A stretch of DNA of 40,331 bases, taken from the NCBI GenBank assembly GCA_016793965.1, contig JAEULF010000114.1, positions 1 through 40,331 of the forward strand. The letters run 5' to 3'. Positions 1-28,736 of the stretch are shown here, in pieces. The DNA comes from Alphaproteobacteria bacterium (GTDB taxonomy: Bacteria > Pseudomonadota > Alphaproteobacteria > JAEULF01). The notes below the pieces were generated by a model. The model made no database searches. It was not told the DNA's origin and saw only the letters and a list, made by a program, of their open reading frames with translations. The position numbers and the translations under genes are program-made. The first letter of the stretch is position 1; each line of letters begins with the position of its first letter.

Positions 1-494
1 TCCGCATGCCAGAGCCAGAGCGCGGCAAGGCTCGGCACGGCGACGGCAAGCGCGATGCCGGCGGCCGCGGCGACCCAGCGGCGGCGCGGCAGGGACAGGC
101 GGGCCAGCCACAGGCGGGCCTGCGACAGGCCGGACGGGCGCTTGCGCTGGGCGGCGAGGCCGCGCACCACCGCGCCGATCTCGGCCTCGGCCATGTCGGC
201 GTGCAGCAGCGCTACGGCCGCGCCGTCCTGCACGACCACGACCGTCCAGGGCGCTTGCGGCGGCGGCATCGGCAGGCCGCGCAGCCGCGCCGTCGCGAGC
301 AGCCCGTTGGCCAGGCGCCGCGCGCGCTCGCGGTCGACGACGGCGACGTCGGGCACGCCCAGCGCGTGCTCCAGCCTGGCGATCAGGCGGTTGATCGGCC
401 CGCGCTCCGCCTCGGCCGTGGCGAGCACGCAGACGACAGGCCGCGCGCAAGAGCGCGCGAGCAAGGCGTCCAGGCTCGTTTCCCGCTGCCGCAT
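1..494 (-). CDS. Hypothetical protein with a hydrophobic segment, truncated at the window edge
   Basis: Manual translation from ATG at 494 (MRQRETSLDALLARSCARPVVCVLATAEAERG...WVAAAAGIALAVAVPSLAALWLWHA) is open to position 1 with GC3-rich codons. Absent from the ORF track because the stop is outside the window. Confidence 0.6.
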   Translation of the reverse strand, partial: MRQRETSLDALLARSCARPVVCVLATAEAERGPINRLIARLEHALGVPDVAVVDRERARRLANGLLATARLRGLPMPPPQAPWTVVVVQDGAAVALLHADMAEAEIGAVVRGLAAQRKRPSGLSQARLWLARLSLPRRRWVAAAAGIALAVAVPSLAALWLWHA

Positions 495-634
495 CGTCCG
501 GGCCCCCGTCGCTGGCCCGCCGAGCATAACCGGGAAACGTGTCGTGTCGCTGGCGCGTCGCACAGGTTTGGCTTAGGGGAGGGTCGGTTCCCCACCGGGG
601 GGACCTGTCGAGGCCCGATGCCGGGAGGCGCGCG

Positions 635-1090
635 ATGTCCGACGAGCAGAGCCCGCGCGGCTGGGACGCCGTCATGCAGGGGAAGGGGGGGCCGCAGGGA
701 CGCGGCGCCGGCGCGAACGGGCCGACGGTGCTGTCGCGCCTGCCGCCGGTCGCGCTCGGCCTCGGGCTCGTCATCGGCGCGGGGCTGCTGGGGGCGTGGA
801 TCCGCTTCGCCGCGGTCGAGCCGAGCTGGATCGGCTTCCTGTGCGATCCCGGGACGGGTCCCTGGTGGTGCGCGCCGCGGCGCGCGCTGATCTGGGGATT
901 CCACGAAGGATTGCTCGGCCTGCCGGCGCTGGCGCTCGCGCTCGGCGCGCTGGCCTGCGGGCCGAGCCGCGCCAGGGCGGCGCTCGGCCTCGGCGCCCTC
1001 TGCCTCGGCGGCTTCGGCCTCGTGCTCTACAACACCGGCGTCGCGGCGGTGGCGGTCATCCTGGCGCTGCTCTCCGCCGCCAGGCGCTGA
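635..1090 (+). CDS. Hypothetical membrane protein (3-4 TM)
   Basis: GGAGG precedes the ATG at 635. Hydrophobic runs VALGLGLVIGAGLLGAW and LGLPALALALGAL, with a Cys pair in a loop. Overlaps the convergent GH17 gene by 35 bp. Confidence 0.65.
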   Translation: MSDEQSPRGWDAVMQGKGGPQGRGAGANGPTVLSRLPPVALGLGLVIGAGLLGAWIRFAAVEPSWIGFLCDPGTGPWWCAPRRALIWGFHEGLLGLPALALALGALACGPSRARAALGLGALCLGGFGLVLYNTGVAAVAVILALLSAARR

Positions 1091-2726
1091 ACCGCAGCGG
1101 CAGGTCGGCGAGGGCCAGCAGCGCCAGCGTCGCGCACCAGCCGAGCGCTTCCTGGTTGGCGAGGCCCTCGCGCGCCAGGCCGATGGCGGCGAGCGCGAGG
1201 ACGAGGGCCGCCAGGCCGCGCTCCTCGCGCCCGTCCCCTGGCGTCGCCAGGGCTCCCATGGCGCGCAGCGCCAGGAAAGCGATGGCGGGACCGAGATAGA
1301 CCGCGGTCGGGAAGTCGCGGTAGCGCGGGTCGATGGCGAGCGCCAGGGCCGTGGACGCCGCGGCCACCATGACGCAGAGGCGCAAGGCGGCGATGGCGAG
1401 CCCGAGCGCGTCTCGCCGCGTGGCGCGGCGCGCGAGGAGCGCCAGGACGCCGACGAAGGGGACGACGGCGGCCCTGCGCTCGTGGGGCGCCCGTCCGGCC
1501 GCGAGGAGCGCGCAGCACGCCGCCGCCGCCGTCGCAGCGATGCCGGCGACCGCCATGGCGACGTCGAACGGCTCGACGGCGGCGATGCGGATCTGCTTGA
1601 TCTGCAGCGCCACGAGAGCGCCGAGGACCTGGCCGGCGAGGCCGGTCGCCAGAGCGCGCGCGAGGTCGAGGCGCAAGCGCAGCGCCAAGGCGCCGCCGAG
1701 CAGCGCCAGCGAGCCCGCCAGTCCCGCACCCCAGATCCAGCGCCAGTGCGGCTCCTCCGAGACCGGCCCGAGCAGCGGGAACTTCGCCGCGCGGTGCGTG
1801 TCGAACAGGCCCCATTGGCCGCCGACGGTGCCCTCGAGATGGCGCTTCCACGGCTGGTCGAAGGCCTCGATCAGGTTGTAGTCGAGCTGCCGGCGCTCGG
1901 CCATCGCCATGAACTCGCGGAAGAAGCGCGCCTGGTTGACGCGGCCCGGCGCTGCGCCCTCGCGCATGCGGCCGGCGCTCGGCCAGCCGGTCTCGCCGAT
2001 CAGGATCCGCTTGCCCGCGAAGATCCGCCTGACGATGTCGACGATGTCGCTGACATGGGACACGGCGTGGCGGATGGCGATCGGGTGGTCCTCCCAGAAG
2101 GGCAGGATGTGCACGGTCACGAAATCGACGTGATCGGCGAGCGCCGCATGCTTCTCCCAGAACTCCCAGACATCGGCATAGGTGACCTCGACCGGAACCG
2201 CGGCCTTCACCCGCTGCAGCAGCTCCGCCAAGCCGTGCGGCGGCTGCTCGCGGCGCAGCAGCACCTCGTTGCCGACGATGACCGCGCGCACGGTGTCCGG
2301 GTGCTCGTTGGCCAGCCGGATCAGGCCGGCGATCTGCTTCTCGTTGCCGACGGGGTCGCGCCCGATCCAGGCGCCGAGCAGGACCTTCAGCCCGAGCTCG
2401 CGCGCGATCGCCGGCACGGCCTCCAGCCCCTGGTCGACCGCGTAGGTGCGCACGCAGCTCGTCATCCGCGAGAGCGCCTGAAGGTCGGTGCGGATCTGCG
2501 CCGGCGGGACCACCAGGCCCTCCTGGAACGGCGACTGGTCCTGGTTGAACGGCGCGTAGGAGACGCAGCGCAGCCGCTCCGTCGGCGCGTCGACCAGCGG
2601 CACCGGCCGGCCGATCCACGCCCAGGCGCCGTAGCCGACCAGCCCGGCTGCCAGCAGCCCGGCGAGCGCAGCCAGCAGCGGGCGCCTTGGCACGCCGCCC
2701 GTCGACGTCTCCGATGCAGCGCTCAT
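1056..2726 (-). CDS. Membrane-anchored glycoside hydrolase family 17 (beta-glucan transglycosylase, NdvC-like)
   Basis: N-terminal TM; motifs CVSYAPF, CVRTY, VIVGNE (acid/base Glu) and IGETGWPS (nucleophile Glu), YNLIEAFDQPWK; multi-TM C-terminus. Confidence 0.85.
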   Translation of the reverse strand: MSAASETSTGGVPRRPLLAALAGLLAAGLVGYGAWAWIGRPVPLVDAPTERLRCVSYAPFNQDQSPFQEGLVVPPAQIRTDLQALSRMTSCVRTYAVDQGLEAVPAIARELGLKVLLGAWIGRDPVGNEKQIAGLIRLANEHPDTVRAVIVGNEVLLRREQPPHGLAELLQRVKAAVPVEVTYADVWEFWEKHAALADHVDFVTVHILPFWEDHPIAIRHAVSHVSDIVDIVRRIFAGKRILIGETGWPSAGRMREGAAPGRVNQARFFREFMAMAERRQLDYNLIEAFDQPWKRHLEGTVGGQWGLFDTHRAAKFPLLGPVSEEPHWRWIWGAGLAGSLALLGGALALRLRLDLARALATGLAGQVLGALVALQIKQIRIAAVEPFDVAMAVAGIAATAAAACCALLAAGRAPHERRAAVVPFVGVLALLARRATRRDALGLAIAALRLCVMVAAASTALALAIDPRYRDFPTAVYLGPAIAFLALRAMGALATPGDGREERGLAALVLALAAIGLAREGLANQEALGWCATLALLALADLPLRFSAWRRRAAPG

Positions 2727-2956
2727 GCCCAGGTCTTCACCGTTGCGAGCCCTCCCGCGCGACCGGTCTCACCCGTCCGCGCCGTCCCCCGCCGCACCTA
2801 TTCACGATCGGTGCGGCCGGCGCAAGCGCCAGCCTTCGCCATGGTCGCCCTCCGGCTGGTGCCCGGCATGGCACCTGCGCGCGCGCATCGCTTCTCAGGG
2901 CCGGCCCCGCGCTATACCTGTCGCGCGTCAAGCGGCAGGAAAGCGAGAGCGGCGCG

Positions 2957-3425: not shown

Positions 3426-4121
3426 ATGGTCGACAGGATCGCGCGCGCCCCCGCCGACGGCGGCGGCAGCCTCGGCACCGTCTTCGGCGGCGCCCAGGCC
3501 GGCGTCGGCGGCGCCAGGCAGTCCCTCAACGGCATCACGGTCGAGCGCCTGACCGGCGCGCCGCTGAAGGCGCGGCTCGGCGACCTGGCGCAGCTGCGCA
3601 TCGCCGTGTTCCGCACCTTCCCCTATCTCTACGAGGGCACGCCGGAGTACGAGGCGCGCTACCTGAAGACCTACGCGGCGTCGCCCGACAGCGCCATCGT
3701 CGCGGCCTTCGACGGCGACCGCCTGGTGGGCGCTGCGACAGGCCTGCCGCTGGAGCACGAGCCGGCCTATGTCCGCGATCCCGTCGAGAAGTACGGGCTG
3801 GACGTCGGCCGGGTGTTCTATTTCGGCGAATCCGTGCTGCTGCCGGAGTACCGCGGCCGCGGCATCGGCGTCGCGTTCTTCGAGCAGCGCGAGGCGCACG
3901 CGCGGGCGCTGGGCCGGTTCCGCACCATCCTGTTCTGCGCCGTCGATCGCCCGGCGGGCCATCCGCGCCGGCCGGAGGGATACCAGCCGCTCGACGATTT
4001 CTGGCGCCGGCGCGGCTACCATCCCGTGCCCGGCCTGGCTTGCGCGTTCAGCTGGCGCGACCTCGACGAGAGCGAGGAGAGCCCGAAGCGCATGCTGTTC
4101 TGGCGCAAGGACATCGCCTGA
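3426..4121 (+). CDS. GNAT family N-acetyltransferase
   Basis: LRIAVFRTFPYLYEG; acetyl-CoA motif YFGESVLLPEYRGRGIG; AGGAG before the ATG. Confidence 0.85.
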   Translation: MVDRIARAPADGGGSLGTVFGGAQAGVGGARQSLNGITVERLTGAPLKARLGDLAQLRIAVFRTFPYLYEGTPEYEARYLKTYAASPDSAIVAAFDGDRLVGAATGLPLEHEPAYVRDPVEKYGLDVGRVFYFGESVLLPEYRGRGIGVAFFEQREAHARALGRFRTILFCAVDRPAGHPRRPEGYQPLDDFWRRRGYHPVPGLACAFSWRDLDESEESPKRMLFWRKDIA

Positions 4122-4143
4122 GCCGCGCGCTGTGAGCAGCGCG

Positions 4144-5073
4144 ATGGCCGGGCCGTCGCCCCGGGCGATCCGCGTCGCGCTGGCGCAGTATCCGATCGGC
4201 TGCTTCGCGAGCGCCGGCGCGTGGCGCGACAAGCTGGCGCGCTGGGTCGGCGAGGCGGCGGCGGGCGGCGCCCAGCTCCTGGTCTTCCCGGAATACGGCC
4301 AGGCCGAGCTGGCCTCGCTCCTGCCGCCTGATGTGCGCGGCGACCTCAAGGGCCATCTGGAGCCGCTGCAGGCGCTGGTGCCCGAGGCGCTGGCGCTGCA
4401 CGCCGATCTGGCCGCGCGCCACAAGCTGCACCTGCTGATGGGCAGCCTGCCCGTGCGCGCGCCGGGGCAGCCCGGCCGCTTCGTCAACCGCGCGCACCTG
4501 TTCGGCCCGGACGGGGGGCACGCGGCGCAGGACAAGCTGATGATGACCCGCTTCGAGGCGGAGCAGTGGGGCATCGCGCCGGGCGACGGGCTCAGCGTGT
4601 TCGACACGGCTCTCGGGCGCATCGGCGTCGCCATCTGCTACGACGCCGAGTTCCCGCTGATCCCGCGCCGCCTGGCGGAGGCCGGCGCCCGGCTGATCCT
4701 GGTGCCGAGCTGCACCGACGCGGCGCATGGCTATCACCGCGTGCGCGTGGCCTGCCAAGCCCGCGCCCTGGAGAGCCAGTGCCTGGTCGTGCAGGCGCCG
4801 ACGGTGGGCGCCGCCGATTGGTCGCCCGCCGTGGACGTCAATGTCGGCGCCGCCGGCGCCTTCGGCCCGCCCGACCGCGGCTTCCCCGCCGACGGCGTCC
4901 TGGCGCTCGGCACGATGGACGCGCCCGGCTGGGTCTTCGCCGACCTCGACCTCGCCGCCGTCGACCGCGTGCGCCTGGACGGCGCCGTGCTCAACCACCG
5001 GGATTGGGACAGGCAGGGGCAGGCGGCAGAGGCGGCGCCGCGGGCGCTGACAACGATCGTGAAAGCGGTCTAG
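4144..5073 (+). CDS. Carbon-nitrogen hydrolase (nitrilase/amidase) family protein
   Basis: Catalytic triad contexts LVFPEY (Glu), QDKLMMTRFE (Lys) and IGVAICYDAEFP (Cys); ARALE motif. Start taken at ATG 4144. Confidence 0.88.
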   Translation: MAGPSPRAIRVALAQYPIGCFASAGAWRDKLARWVGEAAAGGAQLLVFPEYGQAELASLLPPDVRGDLKGHLEPLQALVPEALALHADLAARHKLHLLMGSLPVRAPGQPGRFVNRAHLFGPDGGHAAQDKLMMTRFEAEQWGIAPGDGLSVFDTALGRIGVAICYDAEFPLIPRRLAEAGARLILVPSCTDAAHGYHRVRVACQARALESQCLVVQAPTVGAADWSPAVDVNVGAAGAFGPPDRGFPADGVLALGTMDAPGWVFADLDLAAVDRVRLDGAVLNHRDWDRQGQAAEAAPRALTTIVKAV

Positions 5074-5391
5074 ACTGGCAGGAGCATCAGGTAAGTTGCT
5101 GTTCCAAAAGCAATGGAAATGTGGTCTGACCCCTATTACCATGCATACCATGCATGCAGGTTCACGGCCTTGCGTAATTCGCGTTCAATATCTCGCCAAT
5201 GTCTGGGCTCTGCTTGGATGGACGCGGCAGCGGCGACTCGATTTGCATCCCTTCCCCAATGATACTCCTAAGGGAGCGAAATGAATATGAAAAAGAGAGG
5301 GCCGCGTTCACAGCGCCTAGAGATGCGACAGGTGGGAGTGGAAGTTTCCAATGACAGACAAGCTCGTGGCCGACGGTATTCTGGGGGAGGG

Positions 5392-5838
5392 ATGGGCGAG
5401 ACAAAAAGTGAAAGTGTAAATGGAACAGATAGCACTAAGTATCCTTCGCTTCTTTGGAGGATATTCGATAGCTATGTTCTTGTTTTTCCGATATGGTGGA
5501 TTTCATCAATAGTATTTACTATATCATGGATGATCTGGATATTGGGAGAATGTAGGTATATTGAACTTGGGAGTTTTTTCATATGGACTTTTGGAGTTTC
5601 TGAGACAGCAACAATTGTTCTGGGGTTTATCTTCTTTAGATTTTGGAATCGCCGTCTTTTCACAGATGGTCTGACAACTATATTCGGGTCAGGATTTCCT
5701 CTTATGGCGATAGACTATGCAATAATACAATTTGGCATGCAAGCAGTTATATTTGGGTTTGTTGTCGCATCTGACAAATTTTCTACAATAAGTGATTGCA
5801 AGGTGTTAAGCGCGTTGCAATATACATTGGTGTGGTGA
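5392..5838 (+). CDS. Orphan membrane protein (~148 aa, ~3 TM)
   Basis: GGGGAGG precedes ATG 5392; long ORF in AT-rich DNA with hydrophobic segments. An alternative upstream start exists at 5281. Confidence 0.6.
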   Translation: MGETKSESVNGTDSTKYPSLLWRIFDSYVLVFPIWWISSIVFTISWMIWILGECRYIELGSFFIWTFGVSETATIVLGFIFFRFWNRRLFTDGLTTIFGSGFPLMAIDYAIIQFGMQAVIFGFVVASDKFSTISDCKVLSALQYTLVW

Positions 5839-5839
5839 C

Positions 5840-6286
5840 GTGGTGAGTCCCGACGACAAACCGGAGAAAATACCCTACAAAGAGGATACAATCGCTTGGC
5901 ATTTCTATCTATTTATCAAATGCGCGAAGCCATTGCTAGTACCTATGTGTATCTATGTTTTTGTTTCCCCAATTTTTCTAGTAATCGACATGGCGTTGTT
6001 GATGCTCGGTTCTCCTTTGTACTTGGGTCCAGTTCTTTGGGGGACGGTTATGCTAATATTGTTTCATATTTTGTTTTGGTCTAGGCAAGATGCGCTAATG
6101 CCAGACGCTTCTTCCGGGAAATTTTATGATGGAGTAGGCCAGTATGGAATAGTCACGTACATTTTCTTTCTTCCAAGTGCAGCTATCTGCACACTTGGAG
6201 GAATATTGCACTCAATGACGCTGAGTGCATTTTGCAGTAGCGATCTATGCTGCGTAGGCAAGATAATGACAATGTGTGGCCAATAG
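5840..6286 (+). CDS. Orphan membrane protein (148 aa, ~3 TM, Cys-rich C-terminus)
   Basis: GTG start 1 nt after the previous stop (suggests translational coupling); hydrophobic segments. Confidence 0.6.
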   Translation: MVSPDDKPEKIPYKEDTIAWHFYLFIKCAKPLLVPMCIYVFVSPIFLVIDMALLMLGSPLYLGPVLWGTVMLILFHILFWSRQDALMPDASSGKFYDGVGQYGIVTYIFFLPSAAICTLGGILHSMTLSAFCSSDLCCVGKIMTMCGQ

Positions 6287-6389
6287 ATTCTTTCATAATC
6301 TTCAGATAGTTACGTGGACATCATACTTAATTCAGCTCCCCGTGGGAATGACGGGCGTTCGTTGGCATCCTCGGCCCAGGAGGTGGCCT

Positions 6390-6620
6390 ATGGACCTCGA
6401 CACCGACCGCATCGACGAGGCCGTGCTGGCGCTGCTCTATCTCGGCCTGCACGACCACGGCCGCGCCTGGAAGGGCTTCGACGGTGACGCGCTCCGCCGG
6501 CTGCACGCCAAGGGCTTCATCTCCGATCCCAAGAGCAAGGCGAAGTCGGTGGCGTTCAGCGCGGCGGGGGAGCGCGAATCCGAGCGGCTCCTTCGCGCGC
6601 TGTTCGGCAAGCGCGGCTGA
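6390..6620 (+). CDS. DUF6429-like small protein
   Basis: MDLDTDRIDEAVLALLYLGLHD..RAWKGFD...LHAKGFISDPKSKAKSV; AGGAGG RBS. Confidence 0.75.
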   Translation: MDLDTDRIDEAVLALLYLGLHDHGRAWKGFDGDALRRLHAKGFISDPKSKAKSVAFSAAGERESERLLRALFGKRG

Positions 6621-6651
6621 GCGAGCGCTGGGCCCTGCCGCGCGGCCGCCG

Positions 6652-7470
6652 TCAGGCGCCGCTGCGGCGGGCCAGGAGCGGTGCCAGCGCGTCCTGACGC
6701 AGCACCGCGGCGGGCAGGACGAGGAAGCCGGCGCCGATGTCCCGCGCCAGCGCGACCGAGGCCGGCAGCGCCGCGCTGCCGGCGGCGACGGCCTCCCACG
6801 CGATGCGCGCGGCGCCCAGTTCCGCTGCGCCCAGCTCGGCGGCGACGATATCGGCCAGCGCGGCGCGCTGGCCGAGCGGCAGGACGATCCGGCAGATCCC
6901 GTCCTGGGCCGCCGCGAGCAGCCGCGCGGCGACGAGGGCGCGCCGGGCGGAGTCGCCGTCCGCGCACAGGACCACGATGTCCTGCCGGCGCTCGCTCCGG
7001 CCGGCGATGGCGAGGGCGGCGACGGCGCGCTCCCGCTCGCCGGCCTGCCACGGCCCGACGGCGGCGGCGCTCGCTTCCGCGTCGGCGATCAGCAGGTCCT
7101 CCTCGCGCGCCTGCAGCGCCCGGTCGAGCGCCGCAGCGGACGACAGGGTATGCAGCGTCAGGCGCGAGGCCGAGCCGCGCAGCATGGCGCCGAGCGCGTC
7201 CTGCAGCCGGCTGGCAGAGGCCGTCAGCGCCAGCTCCAGTGCCCGCGGCGTCAGCTTCTCGGCCTGGCCGGTCGGGCCGACGAGATGGCGCGTCACCGGC
7301 AGCGCGGCCAGGGTCTCCAGCACCTCGCTCTGCACGAGGACGGCGGCGAGGTCGGCCCGGGATCGCTCGGCCATGCGCGCGGCGAGGCGCAGCAGCGGCG
7401 TCAGCTGGCCGGAAGCCGGCACCGCGGCGACGATGCGCCGGGGCTGGTTGCCGCGCTGGGTCTCAGCCAT
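6652..7470 (-). CDS. Hypothetical protein, possibly degenerate universal-stress-protein-like
   Basis: RRIVAAV...LLRLAARMAER..ADLAAVLV pattern recalls the USP N-terminus; overlaps the Lon-like gene stop by 8 nt, consistent with an operon. Confidence 0.55.
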   Translation of the reverse strand: MAETQRGNQPRRIVAAVPASGQLTPLLRLAARMAERSRADLAAVLVQSEVLETLAALPVTRHLVGPTGQAEKLTPRALELALTASASRLQDALGAMLRGSASRLTLHTLSSAAALDRALQAREEDLLIADAEASAAAVGPWQAGERERAVAALAIAGRSERRQDIVVLCADGDSARRALVAARLLAAAQDGICRIVLPLGQRAALADIVAAELGAAELGAARIAWEAVAAGSAALPASVALARDIGAGFLVLPAAVLRQDALAPLLARRSGA

Positions 7471-22061: not shown

Positions 22062-24782
22062 ATGGCCGATCGCGCGGACCAGGAGCCGGCCCGGCCGTCG
22101 CCGGAGGCGCTGCTCGCGGCGGCCTCGAAGGAGGGCAGGGGCAGGCTCAAGGTCTTCCTGGGAGCGGCACCGGGCGTCGGCAAGACCTACGCCATGCTGC
22201 AGTCCGGGCGCCGCGCCAAGGCGGACGGCGCGGACATCGTCGTCGGCATCGTGGAGACGCACGGCAGGCGCGAGACCGAGGACCTGCTCGCCGGGCTGGA
22301 GATCCTGCCGCGCCGCGCCGTCGAGTACCAGGGGCGGGTCCTCACGGAGCTCGACCTCGACGCGGCGCTCAAGCGCAAGCCGAAGCTCGTCCTGGTCGAC
22401 GAGCTGGCGCACACCAACGCGCCGGGATCGCGCCATCCCAAGCGCTACCAGGACGTCGGCGAGCTGCTCGACGCCGGCATCGACGTCCACACGACGCTCA
22501 ACGTCCAGCACCTGGAGAGCCTCAACGACGTCGTGCAGAAGATCACGCGCATCCGCGTGCGCGAGACGCTGCCGGACCGCGTGCTCGAGGAGGCCGACGA
22601 GGTCGAGCTGGTCGACATCACGCCCGAGGAGCTGATCAAGCGGCTCAAGGAGGGCAAGGTCTACGTCCCCGGCAACGCGCAGCGGGCGCTCGACCACTTC
22701 TTCAAGGCCGGCAACCTGACGGCGCTGCGCGAGCTGGCGCTGCGCCGCACCGCCGAGCGCGTCGACAGCCAGATGGTCGACTACATGCGCCGGCACGCCA
22801 TCGAGGGTCCCTGGCCGGCCGGCGAGCGCATTCTCGTCTGCGTCGGGCCGGACCCGCTCGGGCCGGAGCTGGTGCGCACAGCGCGCCGGATGGCCGACCT
22901 GATGAGCGGCTACTGGGTCGCGCTGCACGTCGAGCGGCCGGGCCAGGCCGGCCTCGCCGAGGCGGAGCAGGCGCGCGTCGACGAGACGCTGCGCCTCGCC
23001 GAGCACCTCGGCGGCGAGGCGGTGCGCATCCTCGGCGACGACCTGCCGGGCGAGCTGCTGCGCTACGCGCGCGGCCACAACATCACGCAGGTCGTGCTCG
23101 GGCGGGTGCGCAGCTCGCGCTGGGCCGTGCTGACGCGCCGCTCGCTGGTGCACGAGGTCGTGCGCCGCAGCAGCGGCATCGCCGTGCACGTCATCACGGG
23201 CGAGCCCGGCGAGGCGGCGGCGCCGGTGCCGGATAGGCGGCCTGCCGCTGAGGGCTGGCTTCCCGCCTCCCTCGCGGCGACGGCCGCGGTCGCCGCCGCC
23301 GTCGGCGTCGCGGTCGGCATCGACGCGATGCTCGACCTGCCGAACCTGTCGATGATCTTCCTGGCGTCCGTCCTGTTCTGCGCGATCCGCTACGGCATGG
23401 CGGCATCCGTCCTGGCGTCGCTGCTCTCCTTCCTCGCCTACAACTTCTTCCTGATCGAGCCGCGCTACACGTTCAGCGTCAGCGACGGCAGCGACCTGCT
23501 CTCGCTGCTCGTGTTCCTGGCCGTCGCCATCCTGACGAGCGGGCTGGCCGGGCGCGCGCGCGACCATGCCGCGGCGATGCGCGCGCGCTTCAAGTCGACC
23601 CAGGCGCTCTACGACTTCAGCCGCAAGCTCGGCGCCACGGCGCGGGCCGACGACCTGCTCTGGGCGGTGGCGCAGCAGGTTGCCGCCGCGGCCGGCGGAC
23701 GCAGCGTCGTGCTGCAGCCGGAGACCGGCGAGCTGGCATTGGCCGCCGCCTTCCCGCCCGACGAGGCGCTGGAGGTGGCGGACTGGGCGGCGGCGCGCTG
23801 GGCCTGGGAGAACGGCGAGGTCGCCGGCCGCGATTCGGCGACGCTACCCTCGGTCAAGTGGCAGTTCCGCCCGGTGCGCACGGCGCGCGGCATGGTCGCC
23901 GTGGTCGGCGTCCGCCCGAAGGACGACGGGCGCGCGCTGCGCAGCGAGGAGCTGCGCATGCTCGACGCGCTGCTCGACCAGGCGGCGGTGGCGTTGGAGC
24001 GCGCCGACCTGGTCGCCGAGGCGGCGGAGGCCGAGGCGATCGCCCAGACGGAGCGCCTGCGCACCGCGCTGCTCTCCTCGATCTCGCACGACCTGCGCAC
24101 GCCGCTCGCTTCGATCCTCGGCTCGGCGACGAGCCTGCTCGCATACGGCGAGAGCTTCTCTCCGGCCGCGCAGCGCGACCTGCTGGTCACCATCCGCGAC
24201 GAGACCGAGCGGCTTTCCCGCTTCGTCGCTAACCTGCTGGACATGACGCGGGTCGAGTCCGGCGCGCTCGAGATCAAGCGCGACTGGGTCGACATTGCCG
24301 AGCTGTGCGGCTCGGCGGCCGGCCGCGTCGCCGGATTCCTCGGCGCCCGGCGCCTGCAGCGAAGCGTGGCGGCGGACCTGCCGCTGCTGCGGCTCGACTT
24401 CGCCCTGATGGAGCAGGTGCTCTTCAACCTGCTCGACAACGCCGTCAAGTATGGCCCGGACGGCAGCGCCATCGCGCTGCGCGCTGCGCGCGACGGCAAC
24501 GCCGTGACCATCGCGGTGGAGGACGAGGGGCCGGGCATCCCGCCTGGCGACCTGGAGCGCGTCTTCGACAAGTTCTACCGCGTGCACCGCGGCGATGCGG
24601 CCGTCGCCGGCACCGGCCTCGGGCTGTCGATCTGCCGCGGCATCGTCGAGGCGCTGGGCGGCACGATCAGGGCGCGCAGCCCGGTGCGCGCCGGGCGCGG
24701 CACCGCTGTCGAGATCCGCTTCCCGGCGCCGGCTGCCGATGCGGCGCCGGCCGCCGCCGGCGCCGAGCGGCCCGTCGCCTGA
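22062..24782 (+). CDS. kdpD: Sensor histidine kinase KdpD
   Basis: GAAPGVGKTYAML (KdpD domain), USP-like region, 4 TM, GAF-like region, SHDLRTPL H-box, GTGLGL G-box. Confidence 0.97.
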   Translation: MADRADQEPARPSPEALLAAASKEGRGRLKVFLGAAPGVGKTYAMLQSGRRAKADGADIVVGIVETHGRRETEDLLAGLEILPRRAVEYQGRVLTELDLDAALKRKPKLVLVDELAHTNAPGSRHPKRYQDVGELLDAGIDVHTTLNVQHLESLNDVVQKITRIRVRETLPDRVLEEADEVELVDITPEELIKRLKEGKVYVPGNAQRALDHFFKAGNLTALRELALRRTAERVDSQMVDYMRRHAIEGPWPAGERILVCVGPDPLGPELVRTARRMADLMSGYWVALHVERPGQAGLAEAEQARVDETLRLAEHLGGEAVRILGDDLPGELLRYARGHNITQVVLGRVRSSRWAVLTRRSLVHEVVRRSSGIAVHVITGEPGEAAAPVPDRRPAAEGWLPASLAATAAVAAAVGVAVGIDAMLDLPNLSMIFLASVLFCAIRYGMAASVLASLLSFLAYNFFLIEPRYTFSVSDGSDLLSLLVFLAVAILTSGLAGRARDHAAAMRARFKSTQALYDFSRKLGATARADDLLWAVAQQVAAAAGGRSVVLQPETGELALAAAFPPDEALEVADWAAARWAWENGEVAGRDSATLPSVKWQFRPVRTARGMVAVVGVRPKDDGRALRSEELRMLDALLDQAAVALERADLVAEAAEAEAIAQTERLRTALLSSISHDLRTPLASILGSATSLLAYGESFSPAAQRDLLVTIRDETERLSRFVANLLDMTRVESGALEIKRDWVDIAELCGSAAGRVAGFLGARRLQRSVAADLPLLRLDFALMEQVLFNLLDNAVKYGPDGSAIALRAARDGNAVTIAVEDEGPGIPPGDLERVFDKFYRVHRGDAAVAGTGLGLSICRGIVEALGGTIRARSPVRAGRGTAVEIRFPAPAADAAPAAAGAERPVA

Positions 24783-24791
24783 GGATGCCCG

Positions 24792-25487
24792 ATGAGCGAA
24801 TCCCTGCCGCGCGTCCTGGTGGTCGACGACGAGCCGCAGATCCAGCGCTTCCTGCGCCCGAGCCTCGGCGCCAACGGCTACGACATGATCGAGGCGGCGA
24901 CCGGTGCGGAGGCGCTGCGGCGCGCCGCCGCCGACGCGCCCGATGTCGTGGTGCTCGACCTCGGACTGCCGGACATGGACGGCAAGGACGTGATCCGCCA
25001 GCTCCGCGCCTGGTCGGAGGTGCCGGTCATCGTGCTCAGCGCGCGCGACCGGGAGGCCGAGAAGATCGAGGCGCTCGACCTTGGCGCCGACGACTTCGTC
25101 AACAAGCCCTTCGGCATCGGCGAGCTGATGGCGAGGCTGCGCGCCGCGCTGCGCCACCGCCTGCGCAAGGCCGGCGAGACGCCGGTGTTCCGCGCGGGAT
25201 CTCTCGTCGTCGACCTGGTGAAGCGTCTGGTGACGCGCGACGGCGAGCCGGTCCGCATGTCGCCCAAGGAGTACGACCTGCTGCGCGTGCTGGTGCAAGC
25301 GGCCGGACGCGTGGTGACGCACCGCCAGCTCCTTGTCGCGGTGTGGGGGCCTGCCCATGTCGAGGACACCCAGTACCTGCGCGTCTATGTCGGCCAGCTC
25401 CGCCACAAGATCGAGGACGACCCGACGCAGCCGAGGCTGGTGCTGACCGAGCCGGGCGTCGGCTACCGGCTGTTCGTCGAGGAGTGA
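24792..25487 (+). CDS. kdpE: Response regulator KdpE
   Basis: VVDDEPQI, LDLGLPDMDG, YLRVYVGQLRHKIE, TEPGVGYR. Confidence 0.96.
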   Translation: MSESLPRVLVVDDEPQIQRFLRPSLGANGYDMIEAATGAEALRRAAADAPDVVVLDLGLPDMDGKDVIRQLRAWSEVPVIVLSARDREAEKIEALDLGADDFVNKPFGIGELMARLRAALRHRLRKAGETPVFRAGSLVVDLVKRLVTRDGEPVRMSPKEYDLLRVLVQAAGRVVTHRQLLVAVWGPAHVEDTQYLRVYVGQLRHKIEDDPTQPRLVLTEPGVGYRLFVEE

Positions 25488-25589
25488 ACGGAGACGCGTC
25501 GCGAGCCATGCGGAGAGGCGAGGCCAGGTCACGCGTTCCGGCGAAGCGATCGATCGGCTATTGTCGAGACGGTTGAACGGGTGGAGAGC

Positions 25590-25994
25590 ATGGCGAACGT
25601 GGTCAGCAGGGCGAAGGCAGGGGAGGGGCAGGCGCGCATCGTGCCGGTGCTCGCCGCTGCGCTCTCGCTGCTCGTCGCCTCCTTCGCCGGCACGATGCCT
25701 GCCCCGCTGCCGATCTTGGCGCAGGCGGAGCGAAGCAGCCCCGGGATCGATGCGCCGCGACCCGGTGCGGCGGCGGCGATCCGGCAGTTCGTCGGGCTGC
25801 CATCGGCCGGCGACGCGCGCGATCGATCGGAGCGCGCGCTATGGCGCGGCGGCGAGGCGTCGGCAGTTCGGCCCGACGCCGCTCCTGGCCTCGACCTGCG
25901 GCGCGCGGCGACCGCTTCGGCGCCGATCGCGGAACCGCAGCGCGCTTCGGTGCCGGTAGCGGCGGCGCGGCCGCGCGGGCCGCCCGCGGCGTGA
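25590..25994 (+). CDS. Putative translation-arrest leader peptide (ApdP-like) upstream of secDF
   Basis: GGAGAG RBS; N-terminal signal-like segment IVPVLAAALSLLVASFAG; low-complexity linker; C-terminus ...AARPRGPPAA-stop. Confidence 0.7.
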   Translation: MANVVSRAKAGEGQARIVPVLAAALSLLVASFAGTMPAPLPILAQAERSSPGIDAPRPGAAAAIRQFVGLPSAGDARDRSERALWRGGEASAVRPDAAPGLDLRRAATASAPIAEPQRASVPVAAARPRGPPAA

Positions 25995-26001
25995 GCGATC
26001 C

Positions 26002-26034
26002 GCGCGCCGGCCGCAGCACCTGCGATCGGCGCGC
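26002..26034 (+). promoter_or_regulatory. GC-rich hairpin between the uORF stop and secDF
   Basis: GCGCGCCGGCCGCAG-CAC-CTGCGATCGGCGCGC: 13/15 Watson-Crick pairs plus one G-U; no U-tract. Confidence 0.45.
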
Positions 26035-26159
26035 CTGCATCGCCGTCGCGTTCCAGCACTAGAGCCATCGCCCCTGCGACCGTTCGCGGCCGTTGGCGCG
26101 CACGCGCTCCGCTGCGGCCGCAGACGGCTCCGCCGCCCCCGAATTCGAGAGCAAGCCCC

Positions 26160-28736
26160 ATGTTCCCCTCCCGCTGGAAGATCGCGGCCTACGCGATCGT
26201 CGTCCTAGCCGGCTGTCTGCTGGCGCTCCCCAACCTCCTGCCGCGCGAGGCGCTGTCGGCGCTCCCGTCCTGGCTGACGCGAGCCCAAGTGACGCTCGGC
26301 CTTGACCTGCGCGGCGGCTCGCACCTCGTGCTCGAGGTCGATGCCTCGGCGCTCAAGCGCGAGCGGATCGAGGCGCTGGCGACGGCGGCCCGCCCGGCGC
26401 TCAAGGAAGTTGGCCTCGGCGATGCCGAGGTCGCTTTCGACGCCGATGCCGTCACGGTCCGCCTGGCGGACGCCGCCAGGCGCGCGGACGCGCGCAAGGC
26501 TCTGCGCGGCCTCGGCGCGCCCGTTGGCAAGGCCGCGCTCGGCACCCTGCGCCCGGACATCGAGCTCGTCGAGGCGGGCGAGCGCGAGATCAAGGTCACG
26601 CTCAGCGAGGCCGGCATGGTCGAGCGGACCAATGCCGCCGTCGACCAGAGCCTGGAGATCATCCGCCGCCGCATCGACGAGGTCGGCGTCACCGAGCCGA
26701 CGATCCAGCGGCTCGGGCGCGACCGCATCGTCGTGCAGCTCCCGGGCGTGCAGGACCCCGGCCGCATCAAGGCGCTGCTCGGCAGCACGGCCAAGCTGAC
26801 CTTCCACCTGCTGCCGCCGGACTCGACCTCGCTCTCGGCCGGTCGCATGCGCCTGCTGCCCGGCGTCGAGCTGCTGCCCTATGCCGACGGCCGCGGCAAG
26901 CTGGCGATCGAGCGCCGGCCGATGCTCGGTGGCGACAGGCTGACGGACGCGGCGCCGGGCTTCGACCACCGCACCGCCGAGCCGCTGGTCTCGTTCAAGC
27001 TCGACGCTGCAGGGGCCAGGCGCTTCGCCGAGATCACCAAGGCGAACGTGGGACGGCCCTTCGCCATCGTGCTCGACGGAAAGGTGCTGAGCGCGCCTAT
27101 CATCCGCGAGCCGATCACCGGCGGCTCCGGGCAGATCAGCGGCAGCTTCACCGTCGCCGACGCCACCCAGCTTGCCGCCCTGCTGCGTGCCGGGGCGCTG
27201 CCAGCACCGCTCCAGGTGATCGAGGAGCGTACGGTCGGCCCCGACCTCGGCAGCGACGCGATCGCCGCCGGCACGGCCACCGGCCTGGCCGGCTTCGGCC
27301 TGGTGCTCGCCTTCATGGTGCTGCTCTACGGAAGCTGGGGCCTCGTCGCCAGCCTGGCGCTCGCGCTCAACGTGGTCCTCACCTTCGCCGCCCTCGGCTT
27401 GGTCGGCGCCACGCTGACGCTCCCCGGCATCGCGGGCATCGTGCTCGGCATCGGCCTCGCTGTCGACGCCAACGTGCTGATCAACGAGCGCATCCGCGAG
27501 GAGACCCGGCGCGGGCGCAGCGCCGTGGCGGCGCTCGACGCCGGCTTCAAGCGCGCCTATGGCACGATCGTCGATTCAAACGTCACGACGCTGCTCGCCA
27601 CCGTGCTGCTCTTCGCCTTCGGCTCCGGGCCGGTGCGGGGATTCGCCGTCACCATGGGGCTCGGCATTGCGATCTCGATGTTCACCGCGGTGGCAATCGT
27701 GCGCGCGATCATGGCGAGCTGGGTCAAGATCGCGCGGCCGAAGGCGTTCGCGATCGAGCCGCTGCTCTGGCGGCGCGGCGGCGGTGCGCCGCCGAAGATC
27801 GCCTTCATGCGCGGGCGCTTCCTCGGCATCGCCGTATCGCTCGTGCTGTCGCTCGCCTCGATCGGGCTGGCCGTCAAGCCGGGCCTCAACTTTGGGGTCG
27901 ACTTCCTCGGCGGCACGGTGATGGAGGTGCGCAGTCCGGCCCCGGCCGACCTCGGCCGGCTGCGCGGCACCCTCGATGGGCTTGGCCTCGGCGAGGTGGC
28001 GCTGCAGGAGCTTGGCTCGGCGTCCAACCTTCTCGTGCGCCTGGAGCGCCAGCCGGGCGGCGAGGCGGCGCAGCTCGACGCCGTCGCGCGCGCAAAGGCG
28101 GCGATCGCCGCCGATGCGCCGGGGGCGAGCTTCGAGCGCGTCGACATCGTCGGGCCGAAGGTCAGCGGCGAGCTGGCGCGCACCGGGATCCTCGCCGTCG
28201 TGCTCGCGAGCCTCGCGATGCTGGCGTACATCTGGTGGCGCTTCGAGTGGCAGTTCGCGGTCGGCGCCATCGCCACCCTGGTGCTCGACGTCACCAAGAC
28301 CATCGGCTTCTTCGCGCTCACCGGGCTCGACTTCAACCTCACGGCCATCGCGGCGCTGCTGACGCTGGTCGGCTACTCGGTCAACGACAAGGTCGTCGTC
28401 TACGACCGGATGCGCGAGAACCTGCGGCTCTACAAGGCGATGACGCTGCGCGACCTGATCGACATCAGCATCAACCAGACGATCGGGCGCAGCCTCTTCA
28501 CCTCGGCGACGGCCTTCCTGGCGCTGCTGCCGATGGCGGCGGCCGGCGGCACGGCGGTCGGCAGCTTCGCCGTGCCGATGCTGTTCGGCATCGCCGTGGC
28601 GGCGAGCTCGTCGATCTTCATCGCGGCGCCGATCCTGCTGTTCCTCGGCGACCGGCGGTTCGGGCGGCGAGGGCCGGGGGCGCATCCGGCCCCGGCAGAA
28701 GCGGCGCCAACAGCAGCGCCGCTGCCGCGACCATAG
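26160..28736 (+). CDS. secDF: Fused protein translocase subunit SecDF
   Basis: LGLDLRGG, VGPDLG, AVDANVLINERIREE, GVDFLGG, GYSVNDKVVVYDRMRE. Confidence 0.96.
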   Translation: MFPSRWKIAAYAIVVLAGCLLALPNLLPREALSALPSWLTRAQVTLGLDLRGGSHLVLEVDASALKRERIEALATAARPALKEVGLGDAEVAFDADAVTVRLADAARRADARKALRGLGAPVGKAALGTLRPDIELVEAGEREIKVTLSEAGMVERTNAAVDQSLEIIRRRIDEVGVTEPTIQRLGRDRIVVQLPGVQDPGRIKALLGSTAKLTFHLLPPDSTSLSAGRMRLLPGVELLPYADGRGKLAIERRPMLGGDRLTDAAPGFDHRTAEPLVSFKLDAAGARRFAEITKANVGRPFAIVLDGKVLSAPIIREPITGGSGQISGSFTVADATQLAALLRAGALPAPLQVIEERTVGPDLGSDAIAAGTATGLAGFGLVLAFMVLLYGSWGLVASLALALNVVLTFAALGLVGATLTLPGIAGIVLGIGLAVDANVLINERIREETRRGRSAVAALDAGFKRAYGTIVDSNVTTLLATVLLFAFGSGPVRGFAVTMGLGIAISMFTAVAIVRAIMASWVKIARPKAFAIEPLLWRRGGGAPPKIAFMRGRFLGIAVSLVLSLASIGLAVKPGLNFGVDFLGGTVMEVRSPAPADLGRLRGTLDGLGLGEVALQELGSASNLLVRLERQPGGEAAQLDAVARAKAAIAADAPGASFERVDIVGPKVSGELARTGILAVVLASLAMLAYIWWRFEWQFAVGAIATLVLDVTKTIGFFALTGLDFNLTAIAALLTLVGYSVNDKVVVYDRMRENLRLYKAMTLRDLIDISINQTIGRSLFTSATAFLALLPMAAAGGTAVGSFAVPMLFGIAVAASSSIFIAAPILLFLGDRRFGRRGPGAHPAPAEAAPTAAPLPRP

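Follow-up and report, generated by a model that had tools for sequence, protein, structure and literature searches.

A small open reading frame ending in RGPP upstream of a fused secDF gene: a probable ApdP-class secretion monitor in an uncultured alphaproteobacterial lineage

The stretch of DNA analysed here, 40,331 nt from contig JAEULF010000114.1 of an alphaproteobacterial draft genome and hereafter called the window, encodes a small open reading frame (ORF) of 134 amino acids (aa) plus stop directly upstream of a gene for a fused SecDF protein of 858 aa. All features described at this locus are on the plus strand, and positions are numbered over the whole window. The small ORF (25590..25994, with ATG at 25590 and TGA at 25992-25994) ends in the motif RGPP, and from the ORF list, a single close homologue and the profile of equivalent ORFs we predict that its product is an exported or membrane-anchored arrest peptide resembling ApdP; in our estimate, the probability that it is indeed a gene encoding a secretion monitor of the ApdP class is about 80%. 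The ORF is preceded by the Shine-Dalgarno-like sequence GGAGAG (25583..25588), which ends 1 nt before the ATG, and by a two-component pair identified with Pfam, kdpD (22062-24782) and kdpE (24792-25487), the latter ending 102 nt upstream. Downstream, a spacer of 165 nt (25995..26159; C 73, G 52, A 20, T 20) contains a stable GC-rich hairpin (26002..26034) and a weak Shine-Dalgarno-like GAGAG (26147..26151) located 8 nt before the ATG of secDF (26160..28736), the presumed regulated target, which was assigned through Pfam and NCBIfam matches and comparison with other SecDF proteins. An earlier note on this DNA had reported the 134-aa ORF, the RGPP two codons before its stop, the hairpin and a secDF start 165 nt beyond the stop, and direct re-reading of the sequence gave the same coordinates for all of them.

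The product of the small ORF combines an N-terminal hydrophobic segment with a C-terminal proline motif. The segment (residues 17-46, IVPVLAAALSLLVASFAGTMPAPLPILAQA; 25638..25727) was recognized as a signal or signal-anchor from its hydropathy and its near-invariance in the homologue described below. The best 17-residue Kyte-Doolittle mean is 2.41 (residues 17-33), in agreement with the signal-like stretch of the earlier note; the basic residues R7, K9 and R16 precede it, and the A-Q-A at residues 44-46 with which it closes is a possible signal-peptidase site as judged by hydropathy and sequence. The 82-residue linker that follows (residues 47-128) had been described as rich in proline and alanine; both are indeed abundant (12% and 26%, respectively) but arginine accounts for another 15%, so that the linker is better called Ala/Arg/Pro-rich. 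The protein ends R-P-R-G-P-P-A-A, with R129, G130, P131 and P132 encoded by CGC GGG CCG CCC (25974..25985, codons read directly), followed by GCG GCG TGA. By analogy with the reported toeprints of RAPP-like peptides (PMC10987492) and mutagenesis of ApdP (PMC7897499), the ribosome is predicted to stall with CCG (25980-25982) at its P site and CCC (25983-25985) at its A site. In the ESM Atlas the peptide has an unstructured model (pLDDT 0.50), and the nearest feature clusters in the Atlas consist of unnamed Pseudomonadota proteins of 133-140 aa (similarity 0.95-0.96). The ORF is not hidden, as the earlier note had assumed: the identical protein is already present, unnamed, in a protein database and in the ESM Atlas.

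The G+C content of the genome is 72%, and in this region each of the six frames is open for 70-210 codons, so that the ORF by itself proves nothing. Its reality as a gene is indicated by P0002, a homologue retrieved in a search of 5.8 billion proteins, which is 66% identical to the small ORF product in a gap-free alignment of all 134 columns, with the start methionine and the end both aligned. P0002 retains the hydrophobic segment, the A-Q-A-E-R sequence and R-P-R-G-P-P; 25 of the 30 residues of the segment are invariant, including A44-Q45-A46, and a part of the linker, GIDAPRPGAAAAIRQ.VGLPSA, is well conserved. Noncoding DNA that has diverged to this extent is not expected to keep its frame, which argues for a real gene. 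The G+C content of the three codon positions is gene-like in the first ~150 nt of the ORF (0.77/0.50/0.93), with values of 0.80/0.67/0.85 for the whole ORF compared to ~0.72-0.78/0.41-0.51/0.94-0.96 for kdpD, kdpE and secDF. Alternatively, the region might be transcribed by read-through from kdpE or serve secDF as an untranslated leader, the ORF being a chance open frame in G+C-rich DNA. Such an origin would be compatible with the openness of every frame, with the weak codon-position contrast beyond the first 150 nt, and with the lack of Pfam or NCBIfam matches for both the small ORF and P0002. It would also suit the spacing of the ribosome-binding site that the earlier note had mentioned: the GGAGAG is close to the start, its GGAG core (25583-25586) ending 3 nt before the ATG. 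A chance frame is nevertheless difficult to reconcile with P0002, which is 34% diverged and yet preserves both the frame and the end, or with the gene-like composition of the first 150 nt; none of the ORFs that overlap it on either strand has a Pfam match, only three of the 16,917 small ORFs surveyed in the genome share a motif-bearing end and a hydrophobic N-terminus, and equivalent ORFs are present at most related secDF loci. We consider a chance frame very improbable.

Transcript data bear on the same region. Two contigs of one metatranscriptomic library are identical to the window, at 25385-25939, spanning the end of kdpE and the ORF, and at 25915-26090. They give a weak hint of transcription from the end of kdpE through the ORF to the hairpin, given that such libraries may contain DNA and that these contigs reveal neither the strand nor the transcript ends. 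The interval 26099-26286 has no contig in that library, which is uninformative. A variant contig from run X5 aligns with 25846-26572 with 55 differences and no gaps.

The small ORF itself gave nothing convincing in 40 related genomes, and the comparison was therefore made via secDF. All 40 genomes share the class of the host, with no relative from the same order among them, indicating that the lineage is poorly sampled; one of the 40 is unpublished, and nothing is claimed from it. The genome set comprised the best 80 loci encoding SecDF relatives, 58-69% identical to SecDF of the window, almost all from named Alphaproteobacteria and a few from Betaproteobacteria. A same-strand upstream ORF with a motif of this type at its end is present at 75 of these loci, the motif being RAPP in 68, RGPP in four (L032, L035, L044 and L082) and HGPP in three, located 1-10 residues before the stop, which in turn lies 75-166 nt before secDF. 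The five remaining loci (L022, L054, L057, L080 and L083) lack the motif, with RASP found in L080. Among the 80 loci of a metagenome set, 76 were usable (at least 300 nt upstream of secDF), and such an ORF was found at 68 of them (59 RAPP, 4 RGPP, 2 QAPP and one each of HGPP, RDPP and RSPP), leaving eight without; this count is loose because at least two entries (L150 and L155) have the appearance of chance frames, and one record or more duplicates a genome locus. When the upstream ORFs are aligned, the check that the earlier note had proposed, only the N-terminal hydrophobic segment and the C-terminal R-[AG]-P-P (or HGPP) are common to them, the middle being free to vary. The expected conservation of RGPP/RAPP at homologous loci is thus borne out in both sets.

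The window ORF falls within the architecture of this family. A hydrophobic 17-mer was detected in 70 of the 74 ORFs analysed (73 family members and the window ORF), and in the family a median of 93 residues (range 20-104) separates the hydrophobic segment and the stall codon, compared to 97 in the window. The tail after the motif is mostly 3-4 residues long, although it is limited to two residues in five of the 73 family ORFs as well as in the window. Together with the length of 134 aa and the 165 nt to secDF, these values match the family architecture. Compared with a profile built from the 73 family members, the window ORF aligns from its hydrophobic segment through to its motif with a score of 12.2 bits, which was reached by none of 400 shuffled sequences (200 full shuffles and 200 that kept the last six residues). 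In the nearest SecDF relatives (L021, L110, L112, L116 and L129; 66-69% identity), the upstream ORF ends in RAGY-x-RAPP followed by 10 residues, unlike the window ORF. A metagenome scan with the ORF alignment yielded no closer relatives for a comparison of synonymous and non-synonymous changes, and the scan with SecDF reached 68% identity at most. Three betaproteobacterial loci, two of Ottowia (L045 and L066) and one of Acidovorax (L055), have the same type of secDF (60-62% identity) with a RAPP-ending upstream ORF, and Ottowia has two copies of the ORF-secDF pair, which suggests that the pair moves between classes as a unit.

The motif is rare in the source genome (481 contigs, 75% complete). 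In its probable coding segments, RGPP occurs five times against 19.6 expected from composition, a four-fold depletion, with RAPP at 19 against 31.4 and AAPP at 75 against 53.2. A six-frame survey of the 16,917 ORFs of 60-300 aa found R[AG]PP within the last 14 residues of 66 (0.39%), and only three of these, including the small ORF, also have a hydrophobic N-terminus. Another of the three, a 142-aa ORF with a signal-like N-terminus on the minus strand of contig C268 (L105, 1465..1037), carries RGPP three residues before its stop and is followed by a MotA/ExbB-family gene (PF01618; score 24.2 bits, cut-off 22.9) and a gene for a DUF2149 protein (95 bits), at 899..375 and 426..4. This ORF is a candidate second arrest peptide of the genome, judged from its sequence, and its location before a MotA/ExbB-family gene fits the published view that such peptides regulate genes beyond those of the Sec system. 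A 96-aa RAPP ORF with a hydrophobic stretch on the minus strand of contig C419 (L109, 2840..2550) was set aside as a probable shadow of the His-rich plus-strand frame (2070..2843) to which it is antisense; small signal-bearing ORFs are found nearby on the minus strand (2368..2018 and 1863..1456).

Peptides of this kind have been described in some detail. ApdP is reported to be a 140-aa protein with an N-terminal signal-anchor, for which residues R131-A132-P133 are essential, with a unique requirement for P134 at the A site (PMC7897499). In a screen of more than 30,000 genomes, 293 alphaproteobacterial upstream ORFs with RAPP-like motifs were classed as ApdP; RGPP is among the RAPP-like motifs listed there, stalling was observed while the third codon of the motif occupied the P site, and an Alteromonas RGPP peptide is described as inducing secDF2 in an arrest-dependent manner through a stem-loop (Fujiwara et al. 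2024, PMC10987492). The RGPP version of ApdP reportedly arrests translation in vivo and in vitro, and RGPP is presented as generally the strongest and least context-dependent motif, functional in the ApdP, ApcA and SecM contexts; according to the same source, the arrest is not relieved by EF-P, many phyla avoid RGPP more than any other four-residue word, and the genes enriched downstream include sec genes (PMC12992588). According to the reported structural mechanism, the A-site Pro-tRNA is accommodated and the peptide bond cannot form (PMC10951233). The window ORF lies upstream of a secDF of the secondary group on the same strand, has its C-terminal motif within ~15 residues of the end and has an N-terminal signal recognized by hydropathy, and by the published definition it would be a member of the ApdP class with the RGPP variant. 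This class has already been described, and because the literature defines secDF-upstream RAPP-like ORFs, RGPP included, as ApdP, the window would contribute a new member rather than a new kind of peptide. The proposal of the earlier note that the ORF encodes a diverged RGPP-type arrest peptide is accordingly strengthened by the comparative evidence from 75 of 80 and 68 of 76 loci and by the published activity of the motif.

If the window ORF functions like the characterized peptides, its N-terminal hydrophobic segment would send the nascent chain to the Sec translocon, and some 97 residues later the ribosome would arrive at R129-G130-P131 with the P132 codon in the A site. The RGP-tRNA in the P site would then prevent formation of the peptide bond with Pro-tRNA, as solved for RAPP peptides. 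When export is efficient, pulling on the chain would release the stall; when export is poor, the stall would persist and expression of the fused secDF downstream would rise. The stall, its release by export and the induction of secDF are proposed for the window by analogy; for ApdP itself, release by the export machinery and downstream induction were not shown, according to PMC7897499.

The hairpin reported in the earlier note was recovered with 9 + 5 pairs, as the first helix of both the minimum-energy and the centroid folds. Its start is 22 nt downstream of the first base of the predicted P-site codon, just past the leading edge of the predicted stalled ribosome, and the hairpin lies 126 nt before secDF; at about -26.7 kcal/mol it is the best local hairpin of the spacer. 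A scan found no T run after the hairpin and no terminator-like or promoter-like site, and no Rfam family matched 25400-26300 at E<=1. To the extent that the earlier note implied a SecM-like role of the hairpin in the control of secDF, folding gives no support. For 76 loci (the window and 75 others), partition-function folds of the interval that begins 60 nt upstream of the stall codon and extends 30 nt into secDF were computed in three states: free, with a 29-nt footprint for the stalled ribosome, and with a control footprint placed 12 codons earlier. The mean probability that the interval from the Shine-Dalgarno sequence to the AUG is unpaired was 0.518 free, 0.529 stalled and 0.517 in the control (0.60, 0.64 and 0.60, respectively, in the window), and it rose by more than 0.1 at three loci and fell at two, about the same as with the control footprint. 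In the window, the GAGAG before secDF is predicted to be about 60% unpaired whether or not a ribosome is stalled. Unmasking of the secDF ribosome-binding site in the manner of SecM is therefore not supported by folding as a common mechanism at these loci. The ApdP authors likewise report a structure prediction without a hairpin that sequesters the ribosome-binding site and mention that another mechanism may apply (PMC7897499).

Other structural signals were inconspicuous. Folds of the whole stretch in the window are not more stable than those of shuffled sequences (z -0.38 and -1.87), and over the family the spacers show a modest degree of structure (mean z of -1.27 relative to shuffled sequences). 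The strongest spacer hairpin is near the stall site in the window and in about 15 other loci, near the secDF start in most, and no common hairpin design emerged across the loci. A C-rich spacer of the type recognized by Rho was considered and discarded, the bias being too small (C/(C+G) of 0.565 in spacers, 0.554 in ORF ends and 0.537 in secDF, over 76 related and non-independent loci). Also discarded were inverted repeats between the body of the ORF and the arms of the hairpin, which are not nested and follow from GC-rich palindromes. It is possible, albeit doubtful, that the stalled ribosome acts by a route other than freeing the secDF ribosome-binding site, both here and throughout the ApdP class. 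Premature transcription termination may be blocked or allowed, or the processing or stability of the 165-nt spacer RNA may be changed, and the conserved-looking hairpin at 26002-26034 could be part of such an output device.

Several observations weigh against assignment of the ORF to the secretion monitors. In addition to the short spacing of the ribosome-binding site and the weak coding signal in the second half of the ORF, close homologues among the 5.8 billion proteins amount to P0002 alone, and the protein search of the 40 related genomes returned nothing at E<0.002, the best matches being weak and scattered (E 0.0025 at best) with none adjoining a secDF. Outside the motif, the similarity to the family is marginal at 12.2 bits; position -3, occupied by Phe, Tyr or His in 51 of the 73 family ORFs, is Ala in the window, where position -1 is Pro as in 25 of the 73; and the predicted stall hardly alters pairing around the secDF start. 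The last two points could also indicate that the product of the ORF is a genuine small protein, exported or in the membrane, in which RGPP causes at most a brief pause and regulates nothing, the secDF context being inherited. No structural link between the stall site and the secDF start is predicted, and the conserved part of the linker in P0002 might be kept for a separate function or just because the two proteins are closely related. This possibility appears unlikely, given that RGPP is reported to be the strongest and least context-dependent of the motifs (PMC12992588) and that the peptide is predicted to be unstructured. Moreover, RGPP is depleted in the coding sequence of the genome, yet it is kept near the end in both known homologues, where it is likely to be under selection. 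The reading of the ORF as an ApdP-class arrest peptide thus retains our preference.

The fused SecDF encoded downstream matches the Pfam families SecD_SecF_C, SecDF_P1_head and SecD_1st and scores 980.7 bits against the NCBIfam model NF009583 (cut-off 721). It is 55-69% identical to SecDF proteins of loci with an upstream RAPP-like ORF in the genome and metagenome sets combined, and the best named matches are almost all from Alphaproteobacteria, including a Rhodospirillaceae metagenome-assembled genome (69%), Azospirillum, Rhizobiales, Micropepsaceae and Thalassospira; the present comparison takes the alphaproteobacterial affiliation of the host from these names. A separate paralogue is encoded on the minus strand of contig C469 (L107), with yajC at 6959..6585 and secD at 6527..4926; this SecD shares 48% identity with the SecD part of the window protein, which is thus nearer to ORF-bearing SecDF proteins of other orders than to the paralogue from its own genome. 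Because of this separate yajC-secD paralogue, the window gene fits, as far as sequence comparison goes, the description of a secondary SecDF copy reported for ApdP loci. The yajC-secD pair on C469 is followed by a carbonic anhydrase gene (4386..3610) rather than by secF, and tblastn with the SecF half found no separate secF in the 75%-complete assembly. A separate secF may lie in the part of the genome that is not assembled; alternatively, SecF may be supplied solely by the fused SecDF.

The kdpDE pair does not belong to the conserved context. No orthologue of kdpD or kdpE was found beside secDF in the 80 relatives, only two-component matches at 29-32% identity. In particular, a histidine-kinase-like gene is located right after secDF (~5190-5880) at 13 Rhizobium-type loci (L062, L067, L070, L071, L074, L075, L078, L081, L082, L085, L086, L088 and L091), and a kinase and a response regulator are encoded upstream at the Aminobacter loci L041 and L100. 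These kinase and regulator genes match KdpD or KdpE of the window at the same 29-32%, and two-component genes may be a recurrent neighbour of the apdP-secDF pair.

The locus would add an uncultured lineage, known from a draft genome and without close relatives in the genomes searched, to the known distribution of RAPP-like secretion monitors, and it indicates that this class is recognizable from raw sequence alone. The interest lies in the readout of the whole class more than in the peptide itself. With its strong RGPP motif, 165-nt spacer and hairpin abutting the stall site, the locus could help reveal how a stall is read out, and a route other than unmasking, if true, would be a second output mechanism for secretion monitors.

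Among the known systems, VemP of Vibrio, which is encoded upstream of secDF2, resembles the proposed window system in that it is a monitoring substrate with a secondary secDF under its control. The arrest sequence of VemP is unrelated, helical and, as described in PMC7897499, without proline at the P or A site. SecM is likewise released from its stall by export; it differs in its target, secA rather than secDF, and in a longer arrest sequence reliant on tunnel contacts, and for SecM, output through unmasking of a ribosome-binding site is established. The two share no sequence homology, and the window ORF has no match to the SecM family PF06558 in Pfam at E<=0.1; a SecM cluster, at a similarity of 0.89, is the nearest named-family neighbour in the ESM Atlas, which is a lead only. 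The Alteromonas R125-G-P-P peptide (described with uDF_RQH and the orphan RAPP/RGPP ORFs in PMC10987492) shares with the window the RGPP motif and a target of the secDF2 class. For that peptide, a predicted stem-loop is reported to mask the secDF2 ribosome-binding site, and the stem mutations agree, whereas no such masking is predicted for the window and ApdP-type loci, and the host class differs.

ApdP is the closest counterpart. The window ORF departs from it in having RGPP instead of RAPP, a variant seen at four loci in each of the two sets, in lacking the common Phe, Tyr or His at position -3, in its tail of only two residues, in a spacer at the long end of the 75-166 nt range and in showing no alignable similarity to named members beyond the architecture. 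It shares with ApdP the location just upstream of a fused, putatively secondary secDF on the same strand, the N-terminal hydrophobic signal or anchor, the long unstructured spacer and the R-x-P-P a few residues before the stop. The two are also of similar size, with 134 aa and the motif at residues 129-132 in the window compared to 140 aa and residues 131-134 in ApdP.

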